64,000 nucleotides of DNA from Candidatus Niyogibacteria bacterium (lineage in GTDB: Bacteria; Patescibacteriota; Minisyncoccia; HO2-45-28). The stretch is from positions 587,538 through 651,537 of the forward strand of contig CP066691.1 in assembly GCA_016432485.1 (NCBI GenBank), read 5' to 3'. The notes under the pieces are model-generated. The model did no database searches. It was not told the DNA's origin and worked only from the letters and a program-made list of their open reading frames with translations. How positions within the stretch are numbered: position 1 is the first letter of the stretch; every line of letters starts with the position of its first letter. The translations under genes and the position numbers were made by a program. Positions 4,562 to 61,380 of the stretch are shown piece by piece.

Positions 4562-6022
4562 TTATTTCACATAATACCTTTGTTTAATTTTACCGACCTC
4601 CTCTTCTTCCAGGCCGATTTTTTTATGTTTGGCTGACTCGCGTAATTTCCCTAATTCTTTCTCCGACACGGCGCAGAGTTTTTTGATTCGGCCTTCGAGG
4701 TAATCTTTGCTGTTTAATTTCGGGTCGTCAAGCACTTCTTCAAGCAAAACATCAAGTATCGCGCCTATTTTAGGACCGGGCTCAAATGCGCAAATCCGCA
4801 TAATGTCGTCGCCTTTGATTTTGAGCATTTTAACCGAGATCGGGTCGCGCTGGACCTTGTCAACCATAAACTGGAAGTGGCGCAGTTTGTAGGGCTCGGC
4901 TTTGGGCACGCCCGACCCCACGCGGTCGCAAATCCGGACTTTAATTAAATCATTCATATCTTCAGCGCCAACTCTCGCTACAAGCCGCCTGACCGAGGAC
5001 TCCGTAACCTCGCCGACATTGTAATAAAAAAGGTGATAGCGCACCAGTTTGGTTACTTTATCAATAAATTTTTTGGGAAAGCGCAGGCGCGACAAAATCG
5101 CGGCAGTCATTTTCGCGCCCACAATTTCATGATTATAAAAAGTTGAATCCTTGCCGTCGCCATGCTTGGTGCGCGGCTTGCCGACATCGTGAAGGAGCGC
5201 TGACATTCTGATATCAAGCGGCCATTTTTCTTTAACCGCTCGGTCAAGCGAGCGCAAATTATGCTCCCAAACGGTGTAAATGTGATGTTTATTTTGAGTA
5301 ACATTCCAGCCCTCTTCAAGTTCGGGCATAACGAATTTCAAAATGCCGAGTTCCCGCATAGCTTCCAAACCTCGCGAGGCATTATCCGATTCAATCGTTT
5401 TTATGAGTTCGTCGCGAATCCGTTCTTTGGATATGAATTCCAGAAGCCCGCGCTTTTCGCGAAGCGCTTCCAGCGTTTTATCTTCAATTGAAAAACCGAG
5501 TTCGGCTTCAAAACGCAGAGCCCGCATAATGCGCAAAGCGTCTTCTCCAAATCTTTCTTCCGGATTGCCGACCGCGCGAATAATTTTATTTTTCAAATCT
5601 TTCTCTCCGCCGAAATGGTCTATCAGTTCTTGGTCTTTAGTTTTTAGTTTCAATGCCAGCGCGTTTATAGTAAAATCCCTGCGCTTCAAATCGTCTTCAA
5701 GTTTGTCGGTGAACTTAACCGCGTCGGGATGGCGTTTGTCGGTGTACTTTTCTTCAATACGATACGGAGTTATTTCAACTACCGCAAGCGTTGGGTCGTC
5801 AGAGCCGGTCTTGACCCCGACTGTTCCGAAATCGTTTTCATAAAAACTATCGGCAGGGAAAATTTTTTGAATTTCTTCCGGCTTGGCGTTTGTGGTTATG
5901 TCCCAATCCTTTGGCGCTCGTCCCAACAGCAAATCTCTTACGCATCCGCCGACCAAATACGCCTCGTATCCGGCGCCCGTAAGCGCCTCGTAAACCTCTT
6001 TAATTTCTTTCGGGATTTTCAT
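4562..6022 (-). CDS. cca: CCA-adding tRNA nucleotidyltransferase with HD domain
   Basis: N-terminal GGCVRDLLLG pol-beta nucleotidyltransferase motif; HD motif LLHDVGKP. Confidence 0.85.
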   Translation of the reverse strand: MKIPKEIKEVYEALTGAGYEAYLVGGCVRDLLLGRAPKDWDITTNAKPEEIQKIFPADSFYENDFGTVGVKTGSDDPTLAVVEITPYRIEEKYTDKRHPDAVKFTDKLEDDLKRRDFTINALALKLKTKDQELIDHFGGEKDLKNKIIRAVGNPEERFGEDALRIMRALRFEAELGFSIEDKTLEALREKRGLLEFISKERIRDELIKTIESDNASRGLEAMRELGILKFVMPELEEGWNVTQNKHHIYTVWEHNLRSLDRAVKEKWPLDIRMSALLHDVGKPRTKHGDGKDSTFYNHEIVGAKMTAAILSRLRFPKKFIDKVTKLVRYHLFYYNVGEVTESSVRRLVARVGAEDMNDLIKVRICDRVGSGVPKAEPYKLRHFQFMVDKVQRDPISVKMLKIKGDDIMRICAFEPGPKIGAILDVLLEEVLDDPKLNSKDYLEGRIKKLCAVSEKELGKLRESAKHKKIGLEEEEVGKIKQRYYVK

Positions 6023-54096: not shown

Positions 54097-54324
54097 TTAT
54101 AGCAGTTTTATAAATTCAGGCACAGAGAAGCCGATCTGTTTTATTATTGATTTAAGCGTTTTTGGCGTAAGTTCTTTTCTGTGGAACGGAATCGTTACTC
54201 TTAGTTTGCTTTTTGCCAGATGGCGCAGCTGAATGTGGCTTCCGCTTTGATGAAATTCATAAAAACCGGCTCGTTTGAGAGCTTTGATAACCAATGCGGA
54301 TGGGATGCGCGGTAATTTTGGCAA
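54097..54324 (-). CDS. hicA: HicA-family toxin (second copy)
   Basis: ALKRAGFYEFHQSGSHIQL motif. Confidence 0.65.
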   Translation of the reverse strand: MPKLPRIPSALVIKALKRAGFYEFHQSGSHIQLRHLAKSKLRVTIPFHRKELTPKTLKSIIKQIGFSVPEFIKLL

Positions 54325-54329
54325 ACGAT

Positions 54330-54566
54330 TTAAATGCTAGCTGTAACTTTCTCTCTTCGTCTGGTGTTGCCAATAAAAAAGGCCTCGTCTTTGAGAACGG
54401 CCTCCAAATAACATTTTATGGCATCTTGCGCCATTTCTCGAGCTTCTTTTAAATTATTTCCTTCTGTCACTAAACCCGGGAGTTTGGGAACTGTAACCGT
54501 ATATCCCGCGCCATTTGGCTCAAAAACAACTTCGTATTGTAATATATTTTCCTTACGTTTTTTCAT
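54330..54566 (-). CDS. hicB: HicB-family antitoxin (second copy)
   Basis: YEVVFEPNGAGYTVTVPKLPGLVTEGNNLKEAREMAQDAI. Confidence 0.65.
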   Translation of the reverse strand: MKKRKENILQYEVVFEPNGAGYTVTVPKLPGLVTEGNNLKEAREMAQDAIKCYLEAVLKDEAFFIGNTRRREKVTASI

Positions 54567-54767
54567 ATAGAAATATTATAACGCCATATTGCCAAAAATC
54601 AAATTTAACCCGGGTCAGCAAACAAGGCCGCGTCGCGTCAAACGCGATAGCGATTTGACGCGGTGGAATTAGTTCGAACCTGTTTTACGGTTGCCGTATG
54701 ATATTTCGGGTTGGCTTTGATTGCTGTTGCAAAAATCACCCCCACCCTGTAAAATCAACCCATAATC

Positions 54768-55313
54768 ATGGAATATTATATCCTTTTTCAAGGGCGCATT
54801 GATAAAGACGCGTCCTTGGCATTGATAAATGCGCTACTGGAGGCCAACGGAAAAAAAGAGGCCGAACATATAACCATGCTTTTTTCTTCAGTAGGAGGCT
54901 TTATTTACTATGGATTTAATATCGCTACCGTCATCAAAAATCTTGAAAAACCAATAAGAATTCATGCCACAAACGAAATAAGTTCAATAGCTAATGTTGT
55001 TTATTTGTCGGCAAAAGAAAGATCAGCCGAATCTTATGCCAAATTCTTTTTGCACGGAGCTTCAGTTGAGGGTAATCTTAGTTTAAACCTTGAAGATTTG
55101 AATGAACAAGTTTCGTCTATACAAGTCCAAAATGATAGACTGGCTAGGTTTATTTTTGAAACCACTGGAACTTCGATTGAAGAAATAAATCAAATGATGA
55201 AAGGCCGCAGATCTTTGTCGTCCGAGGAAGCTTTCAAGTATAATATTGTTCTTGAAGTAAAAGAGGAGCAGATACCAGTTGGCGCTTTAAGAAAAGATGT
55301 TATTTTCGTATAA
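54768..55313 (+). CDS. ClpP-like (S14 fold) serine peptidase, stand-alone
   Basis: MLFSSVGG...SSIANVVY...FFLHGAS aligns with the ClpP SPGG / GxAASM / MIHQP blocks. No clpX or clpA is nearby. Confidence 0.5.
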   Translation: MEYYILFQGRIDKDASLALINALLEANGKKEAEHITMLFSSVGGFIYYGFNIATVIKNLEKPIRIHATNEISSIANVVYLSAKERSAESYAKFFLHGASVEGNLSLNLEDLNEQVSSIQVQNDRLARFIFETTGTSIEEINQMMKGRRSLSSEEAFKYNIVLEVKEEQIPVGALRKDVIFV

Positions 55314-55320
55314 TTAAAAT

Positions 55321-55548
55321 ATGCTAAAAGAAAGTCTTAAAAATAAGATTAAAGAAATACTTGAAAAAATGGGTTGTGTTGATATTCAATTCTCAAATGG
55401 CACAGAAAATGAGGCCGCTGTTAGATTTAATTGCGAGATTTTGATAAGTTTTAAGACCGACCTGGAGGATTGGATATATTCAGGTATTCAACGTAACGAT
55501 CTTGGGGAACAAAAGTACAAGATTGGGTTTAAACGTAAGAGCAACTAG
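55321..55548 (+). CDS. small hypothetical protein
   Basis: 75 aa. Confidence 0.3.
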   Translation: MLKESLKNKIKEILEKMGCVDIQFSNGTENEAAVRFNCEILISFKTDLEDWIYSGIQRNDLGEQKYKIGFKRKSN

Positions 55549-55594
55549 GTTTTTAGGGTTATAAATCTTGAACCCCGTTTTTAAAAACGACTCT

Positions 55595-55807
55595 TCACTT
55601 ATCTAAATAACGATCTAGTTTTTTATATGATTTACTTATTAAACGAGAAATTTTATATATGACAAAAAGAGCAAAAAACCCAATAATGATTAGTAAGAAC
55701 CACCCACTAATGTCTAATAATTCCCGACCAAGGCCAGTTGTGGGTTTTAGATGATCTGGAGTTTCAACCGGTATTCCTCGTGAAAAATCAAATTCTTTTG
55801 GCGGCAT
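55595..55807 (-). CDS. small membrane protein
   Basis: 70 aa; one TM. Confidence 0.35.
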   Translation of the reverse strand: MPPKEFDFSRGIPVETPDHLKPTTGLGRELLDISGWFLLIIIGFFALFVIYKISRLISKSYKKLDRYLDK

Positions 55808-55846
55808 ATTATTAATTATAATGGATATTGTAAGTATTTGATACCG

Positions 55847-56296
55847 TTAAAATGTTCTATTTTTACAATGTCTCCAATCGTCCTCCATGATCGGATCTCC
55901 AACGCTAGCCCATCTATTAATGCAATCTACAAAATCTTCTAGTTTTGTTTTCGTATCTTCTGCAAATTCTTTTGCGTCTTCAAGCTGGCCTTGTAATGTA
56001 GATACGGCCCACTCTAAATCACTAATCTGACTTTCTAAATCATTAACTCTCCCCTCCAGTTCAGAATAACTTTGCCCATAAGTAGTTGGAGTTATTACCG
56101 TTTGTTTTTTAACTCCGCTTTCTTTTACGGAATGAATTTGCTCTAAATCAAACAGTGTTTCGCGTGGAGCCAAAGAAGAAGCGGTGTTATCATTTGGTTT
56201 TTCATTAAACACTGTAATATAAACCGCGGAGACCAATATGGATGTGAATAGTATTATCAGTAATGTTTTTATGCTGTAATTTTTCATGTCTTTCAA
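55847..56296 (-). CDS. membrane-anchored coiled-coil protein
   Basis: N-terminal TM; LESQISDLEWAVSTLQGQLEDAKE heptad region. Confidence 0.4.
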   Translation of the reverse strand: MKDMKNYSIKTLLIILFTSILVSAVYITVFNEKPNDNTASSLAPRETLFDLEQIHSVKESGVKKQTVITPTTYGQSYSELEGRVNDLESQISDLEWAVSTLQGQLEDAKEFAEDTKTKLEDFVDCINRWASVGDPIMEDDWRHCKNRTF

Positions 56297-56328
56297 CCAC
56301 TGAAGCTAATTTTGTTTGAGCCGGTTTT

Positions 56329-56517
56329 TCATAAAAACTTTTGGCGATTTTCGCCGTGTTCTTTGCCAAGATTATAAGCCAAAACAGCGGCGTAGATAAT
56401 ACCATAGAAAATATGGAAAGTTTGACCAAAGTCTACACTATCCATAGCCGCATCAATAAACGCCAATGCCAGGGGAGAAATTATATATAAAAATAAGAGT
56501 ATATTTTTTATTTTCAT
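56329..56517 (-). CDS. small membrane protein
   Basis: 62 aa; two TM. Confidence 0.3.
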   Translation of the reverse strand: MKIKNILLFLYIISPLALAFIDAAMDSVDFGQTFHIFYGIIYAAVLAYNLGKEHGENRQKFL

Positions 56518-56521
56518 ATTA

Positions 56522-56764
56522 TTATAAGGGGTTGTTGAATGTATCCCGATTAAGTTTTTGGAAGTTTTTTATTTCTCTTTCCCCAATATATTTACTAAAA
56601 CTATTTCTAAAATTATCCCCAAACCATTCAAGAGTGTCCTGTTGTGCTCTCAACCTTTTTAATTGATACTCTCTATAATTTATAAACATAAAACCAGCCA
56701 CAAAAATAGTAGCTATTATTAGGATCAACAATCTAAACCAATTTTCTTTTAACCAGTTTTTCAT
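56522..56764 (-). CDS. small membrane protein, MxxNWLKxNWF family (paralog 1)
   Basis: MKNWLKENWFRLLILII... N-terminus shared with 57014-57238. Confidence 0.45.
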   Translation of the reverse strand: MKNWLKENWFRLLILIIATIFVAGFMFINYREYQLKRLRAQQDTLEWFGDNFRNSFSKYIGEREIKNFQKLNRDTFNNPL

Positions 56765-56785
56765 GAATTTGTTTATACTATCAAA

Positions 56786-57010
56786 CTATAAATTAAACTT
56801 TCTCACGATTCTACGCCAAATAAATGAAACAATAATAGATAAACCGAGGGCAATTATAAAAGACTCATCTTCGGACAAATTCCGGCTACTGTCTGACCAA
56901 ATAAATATCACAGTAAAAAGTGATACGAAAATGAACGCCCTCTTTAAAAACGGCTTCAACAATACTAGTCGCCGCAGAGTTGGAAAATCGATTTTAAGCC
57001 AATCCTTCAT
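56786..57010 (-). CDS. small membrane protein (paralog 2, diverged)
   Basis: MKDWLKIDFP... ; two TM. Confidence 0.35.
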   Translation of the reverse strand: MKDWLKIDFPTLRRLVLLKPFLKRAFIFVSLFTVIFIWSDSSRNLSEDESFIIALGLSIIVSFIWRRIVRKFNL

Positions 57011-57013
57011 AAT

Positions 57014-57238
57014 TTATAATCCTTTTTCTCTTAAACAGAATTTGTAAAAAAAGTCGTAAACCCTATCTTGATCCTCAGACGCCTTTTTGGTTTTTTCGAT
57101 GGACTCTGTGTTACACTCTTTTACAATTTTGTTTGGCCTCCATTCATACCAATAAAAATAACTTGCAGAGATTACGACCATCAAGACAATCACCCCAACC
57201 TTAAACCAATTTTGTTTGAGCCAATTCATGGTCGACAT
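57014..57238 (-). CDS. small membrane protein, MxxNWLKxNWF family (paralog 3)
   Basis: MSTMNWLKQNWFKVGVIVLMVV... Confidence 0.45.
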   Translation of the reverse strand: MSTMNWLKQNWFKVGVIVLMVVISASYFYWYEWRPNKIVKECNTESIEKTKKASEDQDRVYDFFYKFCLREKGL

Positions 57239-57241
57239 GAT

Positions 57242-57436
57242 TTAACGATAACTCCTATATTTTTTAGCGTGAAAGTGGTGTTGGCCATATTTAAACCCCC
57301 ACTTCGGGCAATTTGTCCTACAAGTGTGGCCGCCTTTTCTGTCTGTTCTACCGGGGTGTGCCAACGCCTCAAATGGCGCAGAGAATACAAGCGCCGTGAA
57401 AGCAGTAAAAATAACTACTAAAATAAAATTCTTCAT
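57242..57436 (-). CDS. small secreted cationic His/Cys-containing peptide
   Basis: Signal peptide ...FEALA-HPG; mature about 42 aa rich in H, K, R and C. Confidence 0.4.
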   Translation of the reverse strand: MKNFILVVIFTAFTALVFSAPFEALAHPGRTDRKGGHTCRTNCPKWGFKYGQHHFHAKKYRSYR

Positions 57437-57444
57437 TTCGAGGT

Positions 57445-57696
57445 TTAGTACCTAAATCTGTATGATTTATATGGATCAGAGTATCCCTTTTTGCCCGTGT
57501 ACGGATTGTAATTACCGCGCGTGCTGTAGTTATCAAATCTAGTGCTATTGGGACTTGAGCGGTAATGGGGTAGGACATATGTGCCAGTGCGAGGTTTTAC
57601 ATACCCCCTCACTCTTACAGCTGCGTATGCGGAACCAGCGAAGACGAACAGACCAAAAATTATCAAAATCGCTGCTAAAAATTTAAAGTTTTTCAT
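57445..57696 (-). CDS. small secreted cationic Tyr/Arg-rich peptide
   Basis: Signal peptide ...GSAYA-AVR; mature about 57 aa rich in Y, R, K and P. Confidence 0.4.
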   Translation of the reverse strand: MKNFKFLAAILIIFGLFVFAGSAYAAVRVRGYVKPRTGTYVLPHYRSSPNSTRFDNYSTRGNYNPYTGKKGYSDPYKSYRFRY

Positions 57697-57764
57697 AATG
57701 TTTTAATTATACCATATCTAATAGAAATTGCAAGTGGGCGGGCAAATGGAGGAAGTTCGCGCCT

Positions 57765-58250: not shown

Positions 58251-58320
58251 GGGTGCCTAGAGGGATTCGAACCCTCGATAATTCCTCCACAGGGAACCGT
58301 GTTACCGCTACACCATAGGC
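58251..58320 (-). tRNA. tRNA-His(GTG)
   Basis: Extra 5' G (G-1) giving an 8-bp acceptor, anticodon loop CTGTGGA, T-arm GAGGGTTCGAATCCCTC. Confidence 0.8.
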
Positions 58321-58357
58321 ACCATTTTTGCCCGACACTTGGTGTCGGGCATTGGAT

Positions 58358-58660
58358 TTATTCGCGTAAAAGTTCTTGTTGGCCCTCTTTTTCTCCCAAG
58401 ATTTTTCGGCGCATGGCTTCCAGGGCTTCATCAGCGGCTTTTTTTTCGCGCCTGCGATCTTTTGGCGTTATCACTTTTTTTACCCCCTTTACGCCCTGCA
58501 TTTCAAGAATCATTTCTTTATCTTCAGGCGTCAGATTGTATTTTTCTTCGTTCTTTTCAGGCGTTTCTTGCGGCCGAAGGGAAAATTCTTCTTTAGGCAT
58601 GACCCTATAATAACAAAAAAATGCCTTTTGGCAAGAAAAAAGGCCCAAAACGGGCCGCAA
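58358..58660 (-). CDS. small charged hypothetical protein
   Basis: Probably starts at the internal MPKEEF (about 80 aa). Confidence 0.35.
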   Translation of the reverse strand: MRPVLGLFSCQKAFFCYYRVMPKEEFSLRPQETPEKNEEKYNLTPEDKEMILEMQGVKGVKKVITPKDRRREKKAADEALEAMRRKILGEKEGQQELLRE

Positions 58661-58669
58661 ACTATTACG

Positions 58670-59197
58670 CTATTCCGATGGCACGCCGGGCCATTCCTCA
58701 ATTCTAATCACCAGAGATTTTAAAGCTTGAATCAGCCGATCAAATGCCTGCCGCGCTTTTGGATTGTCCGAAAATAGCTTCTTTAATTCTTTGTTGCAAA
58801 ATCTGCGAGTATCTTTTCGAGCATGAACCATAAAAGTGTTGTTGTACAGCGAAGCATAGATTATAGACTCCTGAACATGAATATCGGATAAAGCCTTTGA
58901 CAATTCTTGACTATATGGATAACCTGCCCCCCTATAAAAATCTAATTGTAGGAGAGGCGGCAGATAGCACCCAAACATCTCTTGGAGCGCATAGAAAAGA
59001 GGATGAAAGACAGAATCGCGGCTATCCACAACTATTCTGGCTCGGGTTATTTTTCTGTTAAGAGGAGTATTACGGGCTTCTTCCAGCAGAAGGCGTATTA
59101 ATGCTAGATGCAAAAAATTTGTAAAACAGATTTCGTTCAAACTTTCTTGCCGCATACCGCCGCCTACGGCCATTCCCAACCTAAAAGTGGCGAGCAT
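58670..59197 (-). CDS. hypothetical protein, paralog A
   Basis: Similar to 59320-59811 (LQLDFYRGAGYPYSQELSKAL versus LNELRFSKRGAFPYSRELSETM). Shares an upstream 22-nt motif. Confidence 0.5.
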   Translation of the reverse strand: MLATFRLGMAVGGGMRQESLNEICFTNFLHLALIRLLLEEARNTPLNRKITRARIVVDSRDSVFHPLFYALQEMFGCYLPPLLQLDFYRGAGYPYSQELSKALSDIHVQESIIYASLYNNTFMVHARKDTRRFCNKELKKLFSDNPKARQAFDRLIQALKSLVIRIEEWPGVPSE

Positions 59198-59319
59198 TTT
59201 ATCTCTCCCTCAGGTTATTTGAGGATATTTACAACCCAAAAAGATTGTATCGCTATTCCGCTTTAAATACAAGCGCCCTGTTTTTTACAAGAAAACGGCC
59301 CTGATTGGGCCGCGTCTAT

Positions 59320-59811
59320 CTATATCGGGTAAATTCTTGTTTCTTTTAATGCTTCGCGAAGAAGTTTTTCTTTGAGGAAATCCACAAAGTCGCCGAAGAT
59401 TCGCAAGCGAATTTCATCATTTTTAAAGATCTCGCTCGTCTCTTTAAGCACTTCCTGAACACCATCTTTTTGCGATACTACATCAAAAGAATTTTCCCGC
59501 GTGCCAAAAATCTCTATGAATCTGCTCAGTCTTAAGATAGCCATGGTCTCACTAAGTTCGCGGCTATAAGGAAACGCGCCTCTTTTGGAAAAACGCAGTT
59601 CGTTTAATTCGGGAAGCGTTTGACCAAACCTTTTTTGAGCTTGCAGAAACACCCCGTGAAGCTTATCCGGACTATATTCAAATGTGCATCTAATGCGGCT
59701 GTCACCAAAACTAAGCACAATTGTTTTTAGGGCGAGAGTAAGAATATCCACGAAAATCGTCTTTGAATCGGGGGTGCTTTTCGTTTCCTCGGACACGCAA
59801 TCAACCTCCAA
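59320..59811 (-). CDS. hypothetical protein, paralog B
   Basis: See paralog A; the conserved tattccgctttaaatacaagcg motif lies 35-55 nt upstream of both genes. Confidence 0.5.
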   Translation of the reverse strand: MEVDCVSEETKSTPDSKTIFVDILTLALKTIVLSFGDSRIRCTFEYSPDKLHGVFLQAQKRFGQTLPELNELRFSKRGAFPYSRELSETMAILRLSRFIEIFGTRENSFDVVSQKDGVQEVLKETSEIFKNDEIRLRIFGDFVDFLKEKLLREALKETRIYPI

Positions 59812-59842
59812 GAGATGAACTACATCCTAAAATATTATTATA

Positions 59843-60091
59843 TTATTCCGCTTTAAATACAAGCGTTCCGTCTTTGGTCGGCTGGTCAACTTTTATCGCT
59901 ACTTCCTGACCTTTCTTAGCCGATTTAATCGCTTCGTGCTCAAGTTGCATTGACTCAACGGTCTGTGAAAATTCATTCTCTCCTTTCACGAATTTAACTT
60001 CGTCGCCCGCCTTGAGCGCGCCGTTTAGCTTAACCACGGCCACCATGGCCTTGTCGTAATAATGTATTACTTTGCCTAATGGTTTATTCAT
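59843..60091 (-). CDS. small translation-elongation-factor-like (EF-Tu domain 2-like beta-barrel) protein
   Basis: GKVIHYYDKAMVAVVKL...GDEVKF...SMQLEHEAIKSAKKGQEVAIKV pattern. Confidence 0.5.
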   Translation of the reverse strand: MNKPLGKVIHYYDKAMVAVVKLNGALKAGDEVKFVKGENEFSQTVESMQLEHEAIKSAKKGQEVAIKVDQPTKDGTLVFKAE

Positions 60092-60180: not shown

Positions 60181-61380
60181 ATGCGAGATGTTGCGATAAT
60201 TGGCGCGGGAATGACCCCTTGCCGTTCAAGATGGCTTGAAAAAACATTTTGGGAACTTTCCCAAATGGCAGTGGCTGAAGCAGTGCGCGATGCCCATATT
60301 CATATCAAAGAAATTGATGCCGGTGTGGTGGGTATTTACAACGATATTTTTGAGTTCCAGGCTATCCCCGAAAGCGGATTACAGGGGATCATCGGTCTAG
60401 CGAATAAGCCCCTGAAAAGATGCTCAAGTGGGGGCGCTACCGGCGCTTATACCATGCTTGAAGGATATACCTGGGTTGCAAGCGGACTTTATGATTTGGT
60501 TTTGGTTTTGGGAGTTGAGAAAGCGCTTGACTGCTACGATTTTGAAGCCCAAAGCCCGACACCGGCGGTGGTGCAAACCATTAGTTATTCTTGGGATCCC
60601 TGGTTTGAGCGGCCACTTGGCGCGCACGCCTCTTCAAGCTATGCAAAAGTCATTGCCGCTTATATGGACGAACATTCCGGCGACCTTGACCCACTGGCAA
60701 GAGCAAAAATTGTTGAACTTCTTTGCCAGCAAGCGCAAAATAATCCCTACGCCCAGCGTCTGGGTGAAAAGGTAACGGCGGATCAAGTCGTGCGGTCGCG
60801 TTATGTTGTCCATCCAATTCGGGCTCTTGAAACTTGCGTCTACACCGAGGGCGCGTGCGCTTTGGTTTTTGCTTCAGAAGAAATAGCCAAGGACATAGCC
60901 AAACGCAGCGGTCGCGATCCTGTCTGGATTACCGGCGTTGGCGCGGCTAATGAAAACTATTTTGTTGGCAGAGATATAACCCGTTATAAAGTTCTGAACC
61001 GCATTTATTCCGATTATCTTGCAACCAAGAAAGCTCTTGGGATGGCCCGTCTTACCATCAACGATATTCAAGTCATTGAACTGCATGATGCTTTCATCCC
61101 GCAAATGATGATTACGCTTGCTGAAATGGGAGTTGTGCCTTTGGGCCGCGCAGATGATCTGGTTAACGAGGGCATCATAATGCCTGGCGGCCGACTGTTA
61201 GTGAATCCTTCGGGTGGATTGGTTTTCGGCGGACATTTTGTCGGCGGATCAAACATGATGTCAACCTGGAGCGTTATGCGAGAGATGAGAACAAGGAATT
61301 TTGAACACGGCATGATTCATGGAACCGGCGCCAGCCGTTCAATCTACGGCGTGGCTGTTGTCCTTGAAAGGAGGGGTTGA
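60181..61380 (+). CDS. thiolase-superfamily protein (SCP-x / archaeal acetoacetyl-CoA thiolase type)
   Basis: Thiolase N- and C-terminal halves; Cys in RCSSGGATGAYT; C-terminal HGxGA-like region. Confidence 0.7.
   Translation: MRDVAIIGAGMTPCRSRWLEKTFWELSQMAVAEAVRDAHIHIKEIDAGVVGIYNDIFEFQAIPESGLQGIIGLANKPLKRCSSGGATGAYTMLEGYTWVASGLYDLVLVLGVEKALDCYDFEAQSPTPAVVQTISYSWDPWFERPLGAHASSSYAKVIAAYMDEHSGDLDPLARAKIVELLCQQAQNNPYAQRLGEKVTADQVVRSRYVVHPIRALETCVYTEGACALVFASEEIAKDIAKRSGRDPVWITGVGAANENYFVGRDITRYKVLNRIYSDYLATKKALGMARLTINDIQVIELHDAFIPQMMITLAEMGVVPLGRADDLVNEGIIMPGGRLLVNPSGGLVFGGHFVGGSNMMSTWSVMREMRTRNFEHGMIHGTGASRSIYGVAVVLERRG

Follow-up and report, generated by a model that had tools for sequence, protein, structure and literature searches.

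The 22-nt motif shared by two tandem paralogs in Candidatus Niyogibacteria is the coding end of the upstream gene and probably a promoter

Two adjacent genes of a Candidatus Niyogibacteria genome (Patescibacteria/CPR) encode related proteins and are each preceded by the same 22-nt word, and the locus raises the question of what this word is and how the pair behind it came about. The window analyzed here is a stretch of 64,000 nt of the 836,981-bp MAG contig CP066691.1 (assembly GCA_016432485.1, positions 587,538 to 651,537). All features of the locus lie on its minus strand and, in the order of transcription, an 82-aa β-barrel gene is followed by paralog A, a hairpin with a T-run, paralog B, a second hairpin with a T-run, an 80-aa gene and tRNA-His (Table 1). 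A preliminary description had reported two similar ORFs of 163-175 aa, with no recognizable domain, between tRNA-His and a small EF-Tu-domain-2-like protein. Homology of the two was borne out by BLASTP (26% identity over 145 aa, E = 8e-13), and neither A nor B had a family match in Pfam, NCBIfam or PHROGs; word-indexed homology searches with A and B returned the proteins themselves alone. Concerning the flanks, tRNA-His and the barrel gene do enclose the pair, but the 80-aa gene between B and tRNA-His had been overlooked. This small-protein gene is an older resident of the interval between the barrel gene and tRNA-His. The terminator hairpin after each paralog had also been missed.

Table 1. 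Features of the locus between the barrel gene and tRNA-His, in the order of transcription (positions in the window).
Feature	Position	Strand	Basis or remark
82-aa β-barrel gene (EF-Tu domain 2 / Peptidase_U32_C-like)	59843..60091	-	Pfam match; 3' end is motif copy 1
Motif copy 1, codons (T)LVFKAE and TAA stop of the barrel gene	59844..59865	-	Sequence read, exact match
Putative promoter of A: -35 TTGTAT (59862-59857), 17-nt spacer, -10 AATAAT (59839-59834)	59834..59862	-	Pattern match
Paralog A, 158 aa from GTG 59796	59320..59796	-	ORF list, GGAGG before GTG, NCBI call
Intrinsic terminator of A: GCGGCCC-AATCA-GGGCCGT, then TTTCTTG	59295..59313	-	Terminator/fold analysis
Post-terminator remnant TTTTCTTGTAAAAAACAGGG, related by homology to the -35 promoter region that precedes the next gene at other alleles	59276..59294	-	Alignment
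Motif copy 2, non-coding relic of the barrel gene 3' end, reads ALVFKAE then TAG	59254..59275	-	Sequence read
45-nt block 100% identical to L086, holds the putative promoter of B	59231..59275	-	Comparison with L086
Putative promoter of B: -35 TTGTAT, -10 TACAAT	59272-59267, 59249-59244	-	Pattern match
Paralog B, 175 aa, GGGAGA 6 nt before ATG	58670..59197	-	ORF list, BLASTP against A
Third, partial motif copy CGGAATAGCG, overlapping the stop codon of B	58668..58677	-	10-mer repeat
Intrinsic terminator of B: GGCCCGTTTTGGGCC, then TTTTTTC	58642..58656	-	L086 similarity resumes here
80-aa charged small-protein gene	58358..58600	-	Between B and tRNA-His
Promoter-like site of the 80-aa gene: TTGCCA-16-TATTAT	58634-58607	-	Pattern
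tRNA-His(GTG)	58251..58322	-	Widespread downstream partner of the barrel gene in the Patescibacteria loci sampled

For A, the mechanically called ORF (59320-59811) opens with a TTG at 59811 and gives 163 aa, while the real start is likely the GTG after the GGAGG, as in the NCBI call. Since each paralog has its own intrinsic terminator as well as a promoter-like site, each forms a promoter-gene-terminator unit, and the window would hold two autonomous cassettes of this kind.

The motif itself, TATTCCGCTTTAAATACAAGCG, is found exactly twice in the window, even with three mismatches allowed, and had 0 matches in 100 shuffles, so that its presence upstream of each ORF, as first described, stands. 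The start of A is 33 nt (if TTG) or 47 nt (if GTG) downstream of its end, and that of B 56 nt. The motif is the 3' end of the conserved 82-aa barrel gene, namely its last seven codons and stop. Specifically, the coding strand of copy 1 reads ...ACG CTT GTA TTT AAA GCG GAA TAA (T-L-V-F-K-A-E-stop), and copy 2 reads GCG CTT GTA TTT AAA GCG GAA TAG in non-coding DNA behind the terminator of A; the latter is a duplicated relic of the barrel gene end, placed before B. The barrel protein matches Peptidase_U32_C (PF16325, E = 2.8e-7, 31 bits against a cut-off of 28.2) and PF14578 (26.4 bits against 23.8), as well as GTP_EFTU_D4 and GTP_EFTU_D2. Its 223 homologues show it to be widespread and conserved across Patescibacteria, and its C-terminus is conserved as G(T/A)LV(F/Y)KAE. 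As copy 1 encodes precisely this C-terminus, it is native coding sequence. The identity of the two copies is then largely a matter of common descent from a conserved gene end plus coding constraint, and no operator is needed to account for it. Of the shared promoter or operator originally suggested, the promoter is thus the better-supported part, and the motif is not an independent regulatory word, copy 1 being coding and copy 2 a relic. The preliminary description had also made its reading depend on conservation of the motif in orthologous loci, where it is indeed retained (22/22 in L086, 21/22 in L095). An exact-motif scan of metagenomes gave a single, unrelated chance match (L091). Finally, the 10-mer of the partial copy at the end of B recurs in the window only at 59251-59260 (0.18 matches expected) and is a possible relic of a further module. 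That copy 1 consists of the last seven codons and stop of the 82-aa gene had gone unnoticed in the earlier account.

Judged by its sequence, the 3' end of the barrel gene together with the nucleotides after it probably contains a sigma-70-type promoter, and a shared promoter is the best-supported function of the motif. Both copies read TTGTAT-N17-(A/T)A(T/C)AAT, with AATAAT for A and TACAAT for B and L086, and a pattern search with TTGTAT-N17-WAYAAT found only these two sites in the window. When the two sites were aligned with those of L086, L095, L105, L087, L089 and L007, TTGT(A/C/T)T followed after 17 nt by TAnAnT just past the stop was present in 8/8 sequences from 7 loci, and this -35/-10 geometry is kept while the spacer and the downstream genes vary. 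The comparison of the window with L095 showed 2/40 differences in the last 40 nt of the barrel gene against 35/179 further upstream (p ~0.009, post hoc test), and the stretch of 100% identity shared by the window and L086 covers the region between the -35 and a point shortly after the predicted start site, where similarity ends. Additionally, several tRNA genes in the window are preceded by similar TTGnnn-N16/17-TAnnnT sites. B lies behind the terminator of A and hence needs a promoter of its own; for A, read-through of transcription from the promoter of the barrel gene itself could suffice. The -35 TTGTAT matches TTGACA at 3/6 positions, which is below the threshold of the consensus scanner, and the sites were consequently unreported by it. 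The TTGT(A/C/T)T element sits in the Leu-Val-Phe/Tyr codons of the barrel gene, and these codons alone can explain its conservation; the -10-like hexamer, located in AT-rich sequence, would be the sole independent evidence for the putative promoter.

Comparison with related loci showed how the surroundings of this gene end vary. Five Logan contigs from other samples represent the same strain, being 100% identical with the same A+B layout and without structural variants. The close relative L086 (GCA_964574495.1) has a 98% identical barrel protein and a 96% identical barrel DNA region, although it is a co-assembled MAG and a mosaic in comparison with the window, the identity of its thiolase being only 25%. 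In L086, the barrel gene ends in TAG and continues directly into the window's post-copy-2 sequence, with 100% identity over 45 nt. The 590-bp A unit is missing from it, which is exactly the segment between the repeats, and 507 nt without DNA similarity stand in place of B, before similarity resumes exactly at the terminator of B (90% over 952 nt). The replaced stretch encodes a third family member, C, with one frameshift; the identity of C is 39% to A and 27% to B. Further alleles were identified in L095, where the barrel gene is followed by D (46% identical to A), a terminator, a small protein and tRNA-His, and in L105, where it is followed by E (38% identical to A), a terminator and tRNA-His. 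In L087 and L089, only the small protein lies between the barrel gene and tRNA-His; at several other Patescibacteria loci tRNA-His comes directly after the barrel gene, and others have tRNA-Gln or tRNA-Lys. As the gene content between barrel gene and tRNA-His differs among loci, this slot is variable. The family occupies it in one clade, with members in four related lineages, and two copies are present only in this strain; at 80 other barrel-gene loci there is neither a family member nor a repeat of the locus's own gene end.

Concerning the origin of the pair, a neighbor-joining tree placed A, C, D, E and P0124 in one clade with B outside. B is 21-30% identical to all family members compared, which together with its position in the tree excludes a recent duplication of A. 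Behind the terminator of A comes TTTTCTTGTAAAAAAC, a sequence whose homologous counterpart at the other alleles is the -35 region in the promoter of the next gene; it then passes into the barrel relic, with the junction at ~59276-59285. In L086, moreover, the promoter-proximal sequence of B is natively attached to the barrel gene. The tree, the junction and this attachment favor the stacking of two slot alleles, or an older duplication followed by allele replacement, and A and B resemble stacked alleles of this slot, which evolves fast. As a mechanism, a promoter in the barrel 3' end, with its -35 in the Leu-Val-Phe codons and its -10 17 nt further on, past the stop, would drive whatever gene lies downstream. 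A second and very different downstream allele would have been added in tandem, bringing or keeping the gene-end fragment because that fragment serves as its promoter, either through unequal or illegitimate recombination between two slot alleles or through an older duplication with allele replacement. The 22/22 identity may then reflect the shared descent of a conserved gene end, coding constraint on copy 1 and promoter constraint on copy 2. Taken as a whole, from the gene-end promoter to the added divergent allele and the two resulting cassettes, we consider this the probable explanation of the locus. In the 12 nt preceding the relic, only ~8/12 positions agree with the barrel gene, so that where the copied piece starts on the left, and with it how old the event is, is ambiguous.

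An old tandem duplication in place, after which the 22-mer was kept by purifying selection on a promoter or operator and the rest diverged to saturation, would also fit several features of the two units: they are 76% identical over 50 nt around the motif, the upstream flanks share an AAAnACnG similarity, the downstream flanks align through the -10, and both have the promoter-gene-hairpin layout. Such a history appears unlikely to us, since B is no closer to A than to other members and lies outside the barrel-linked clade, and since the sequence downstream of the B-type promoter is attached to the barrel gene in L086, which marks it as an allele of the barrel-adjacent position. Furthermore, 0/22 changes beside ~35-45% divergence in both flanks could be maintained only if every base, those of the spacer too, were constrained. 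The identity extends across the spacer, where no constraint would come from an ordinary promoter, and could be taken to indicate an operator, in which a transcription factor (perhaps the paralogs themselves) recognizes the inverted repeat CGCTT-N7-AAGCG for co- or autoregulation of A and B. The motif does contain this 5-bp inverted repeat with its 7-nt spacer, GCTT-N7-AAGC is also present in L087 and L089, and the proteins have a predicted winged-helix-like core. However, the palindrome follows from the codons Ala/Thr-Leu ... Lys-Ala and is absent in L105 (CTCTTGTCTATAAAACAG). A search for winged-helix transcription factors (MarR/PadR type) gave significant matches for 0/37 members, and MarR_2 (one member of 37, E = 0.019) was the only match to any family of DNA-binding transcription factors. 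Alleles that are just 24-46% identical would have to recognize one invariant site, and FPYSxEL, the segment of highest conservation, is the same throughout the family whatever the host, which would be unusual for a recognition helix that sets specificity. We therefore regard an operator as quite improbable.

Integrative elements typically target gene 3' ends next to tRNA genes. The target here, a conserved gene 3' end beside a tRNA gene, is of this kind, and the 22-mers could accordingly be attL/attR-like repeats left by site-specific integration of a 590-bp cassette into the barrel gene end; they are exact direct repeats 590 bp apart around a one-gene unit, L086 resembles a precise empty site with its junction at the repeat, and a third partial repeat follows B. 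Nevertheless, the Pfam-annotated genes of the flanking ~6 kb on each side include no integrase or recombinase, the insert holds only paralog A and its terminator, with no element-encoded integrase or excisionase, and there is no attC-like long imperfect palindrome. Each unit has its own promoter-like site and terminator, the repeat is present in none of the 80 other barrel loci, and RecA-type recombination between the repeats accounts for the L086 state equally well, while the chromosomal post-terminator sequence after A fits unequal recombination and not the insertion of a circular cassette. Site-specific integration is accordingly very unlikely. Even less credible is an action of the motif as an RNA hairpin (CGCUU-7-AAGCG), be it as a stabilizer or terminator of the barrel mRNA or as an attenuator of the downstream gene. 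A small hairpin did appear in the MFE folds of both contexts, but its stem comprises just 5 pairs and lacks a U-tract, shuffled sequence folds as well as the copy-1 context does (z = -0.43), and the significance of the copy-2 context is due to the true terminator next to it; the Rfam search found only tRNA-His, and the RNA-element reading was rejected on the grounds of the weak stem, the copy-1 fold and the Rfam result.

The proposed stacking of two slot alleles behind a putative gene-end promoter leaves aside what the encoded proteins do. An exhaustive profile search of 1.84 billion proteins yielded 55 family representatives, 18 of them at E <=1e-10; most have 137-169 aa and one, P0130, is a fused, two-domain double. 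Their alignment gave the core LH..F..L...(Y/F)...LP.L..LHF...GAFPYS.EL..A...L..SG.I....P....F......D(S/T). H47, FPYS and D111 make up a cluster of conserved residues. The AF2 model of A (pLDDT 92.4, pTM 0.86) showed only weak winged-helix-like matches and no close match in the PDB, and the proteins are predicted to be cytoplasmic, ~140-175 aa long, with a winged-helix-like core. Searches of A, B, C and 37 family members against Pfam, NCBIfam, PHROGs and PADLOC gave only scattered, chance-level matches. No match was obtained in PDB sequence searches with family profiles, no relatives in JGI metagenome and IMG/VR scans with family alignments, and the family was not found by tblastn against plasmids and phages. 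It is a rare family, absent from every library searched, and it evolves unusually fast between near-identical strains.

An association with defense, toxin-antitoxin or mobile elements, which the preliminary description had proposed to look for by a context survey, was not seen in the window, and the lead that did emerge comes from three distant homologues. In P0125, P0132 and P0139, the gene directly precedes one for a 514-526-aa HD + HD_assoc_2 protein, the two genes overlapping by 8 nt or lying 3 and 12 nt apart. These HD proteins are SAMHD1-like by sequence (E ~1e-17) and have weak matches to the PADLOC dGTPase model. Outside the barrel-linked lineage, an HD gene was directly downstream in 3/7 contexts examined (those named are P0125, P0129, P0132, P0133, P0139 and P0142, the context of P0130 being left out). 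The Patescibacteria-type contexts of the family are solitary, two of them near nucleotide-metabolism genes; no HD gene is present in the window, and none is adjacent in the related loci of the Niyogibacteria type examined. Type II toxin-antitoxin pairing is not what the window shows, each paralog being monocistronic with its own terminator. A literature search on PF19276 and HD_assoc_2 found nothing. Fast evolution, variable copy number and the three homologues directly upstream of SAMHD1-like HD genes make a binding or regulatory partner role our best guess for the family. Going further, the family might be the variable partner (a sensor, inhibitor or immunity-like subunit) of an undescribed two-gene system with a SAMHD1-like dNTP phosphohydrolase at its core, the stand-alone copies of Niyogibacteria-type CPR bacteria might mark a conflict slot (for instance with phage or host) that is hypervariable also in copy number, and A and B might heterodimerize, as suggested by the fused two-domain homologue P0130; this extended proposal is speculative and rather doubtful.

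The original observation is thus real but largely explained by a duplicated cassette whose "motif" is the coding end of the upstream gene. For annotation, the lesson is that a motif upstream of tandem paralogs can be the preceding gene's coding end plus its relic. The locus also offers an example, from a reduced CPR genome, of how a putative gene-end promoter would allow the gene behind it to be stacked or exchanged as a self-contained cassette. What remains of interest is the rare, fast-evolving and unannotated family, together with the SAMHD1-like link in three homologues. The pairing of a small protein with a SAMHD1-like HD protein in three members outside CPR is absent from PADLOC and from the protein-family libraries searched, and it provides a testable lead, although its link to function is thin.

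Among known systems, bacterial SAMHD1/dGTPase defense enzymes resemble the HD proteins encoded after P0125, P0132 and P0139, whereas the window has no HD gene. Defense systems of the dGTPase type, which deplete dNTPs, are described as single-gene systems (bioRxiv 10.1101/2021.04.26.441389; PMC13519002). A small partner protein is not mentioned in a paper on dGTPase defense. The C-terminal, DarT-binding domain of DarG (PDB 7yk3_D) was also considered; there is no macrodomain here and no DarT neighbor, and a relation to DarG was rejected, as it came from one weak profile match in 1/37 members and PDB sequence searches gave no DarG match. Integron cassettes and att-flanked islets share one-gene units, direct repeats and presence or absence with a precise junction. 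They differ in that the present locus has neither an integrase (~6 kb on each side) nor attC, its units are not promoterless, and its repeat is the coding end of a host gene; an integron was rejected because there is no IntI-type recombinase nearby, the stem has 5 bp against an attC of ~60-140 nt, and promoter-like sites are present. An ordinary tandem duplication (segmental, or by unequal crossing-over) with an internal promoter in the end of the upstream gene is alike in having its unit boundaries inside that gene, a gene-end relic before the second copy, and a promoter and terminator kept with each copy. A simple and recent event of this type differs from what is seen here, as A and B are as distant as any two members (24-26% identical) and a close relative carries another allele on the same promoter block. 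In the orphan-module arrays of cdiA/rhs loci, divergent modules are stacked downstream, each after a short fragment of the conserved upstream gene. The present locus has no toxin domain, immunity pairing or large upstream gene and no sign of switching, and its fragment of ~22-32 nt contains a stop codon, so that recombination would make no new protein tip. It nonetheless shares with these arrays the stacking of divergent modules, a gene fragment before the module, strong allelic diversity between strains and conserved flanks.

The synteny between the gene for the barrel small protein (82 aa, EF-Tu domain 2/Peptidase_U32_C-like) and a tRNA gene is conserved among the Patescibacteria loci sampled, where tRNA-His(GTG) very often lies 10-100 nt after the barrel gene. 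Barrel-gene-to-tRNA loci are L007, L009, L011, L045, L063, L064, L087, L089 and L105. In Levybacteria-type loci the barrel gene is followed by tRNA-Gln, and other loci have tRNA-Lys. In the barrel gene of locus L057, the stop codon is spanned by a 15-nt tandem duplication (two copies of ATCTACAAAGCTTAA). The 64-kb window bears 21 tRNA genes, many of them standing singly amid protein-coding genes, as would fit a CPR genome of small size.

Several lineages encode a Lys/Glu-rich, highly charged protein of 80-95 aa between the barrel gene and tRNA-His, with 47-58% identity between lineages and no match to a database family. In the window, a perfect hairpin with a 10-bp stem (TGCCCGACAC-TTG-GTGTCGGGCA) lies 6 nt upstream of tRNA-His, with the small-protein gene on its other side. 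The scanner called it a terminator on the plus strand only; it may mark a site of processing or terminate transcription in both directions.

Comparison with the close relative L086 (GCA_964574495.1) revealed a second strain-variable block. In the window this block is approximately 3.1 kb long and made up of small ORFs, two of which encode Tyr/Arg/Lys-rich peptides resembling signal peptides. In its place L086 has approximately 640 nt with an AAA_18/CPT-like gene of 166 aa. The window and L086, elsewhere 90-100% identical, share only 25% identity in the thiolase-like gene that is transcribed divergently from the barrel gene. This indicates that the genome is mosaic or that the co-assembly is chimeric. 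A few kb downstream, a HicB-like antitoxin gene is present in L086 and in contig L001 (same strain as the window), and there is another one on L095.

Coordinates of the features described, by locus
Feature	Locus	Position	Remark
HicB-like antitoxin gene	window	~54246-54630	placed by window-L086 alignment
HicB-like antitoxin gene	L086	4335-4571	
HicB-like antitoxin gene	L001	11231-11467	
HicB-like antitoxin gene	L095	2023-2247	
Second variable block	window	54630-57735	
Second variable block	L086	3628-4270	
Signal-peptide-like peptides	window	57242-57696	
Hairpin	window	58329-58351	
Charged small-protein gene	window	58358-58600	(-)
Charged small-protein gene	L087	5293-5544	
Charged small-protein gene	L089	2638-2922	
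Charged small-protein gene	L095	801-1046	
Thiolase-like gene	window	60181-61380	
Thiolase-like gene	L086	451-1812	
Tandem duplication, barrel gene	L057	~5231-5266	
Solitary family member and neighbours	L096	918-5148	dCTP deaminase x2, dUTPase, NUDIX
Solitary family member and neighbour	L103	603-1172	thymidine kinase

Concerning other members of the family of tandem paralogs, the representative P0130 (306 aa, on a Logan contig of 3889 bp) has two family domains fused in one protein, seen as two matched stretches, which hints that tandem pairs and dimers are recurrent in the family. Solitary Patescibacteria-type members were found near nucleotide-metabolism genes in L096 and L103. These neighbors echo the linkage of other family members to SAMHD1-like HD genes, though the resemblance may be coincidental.
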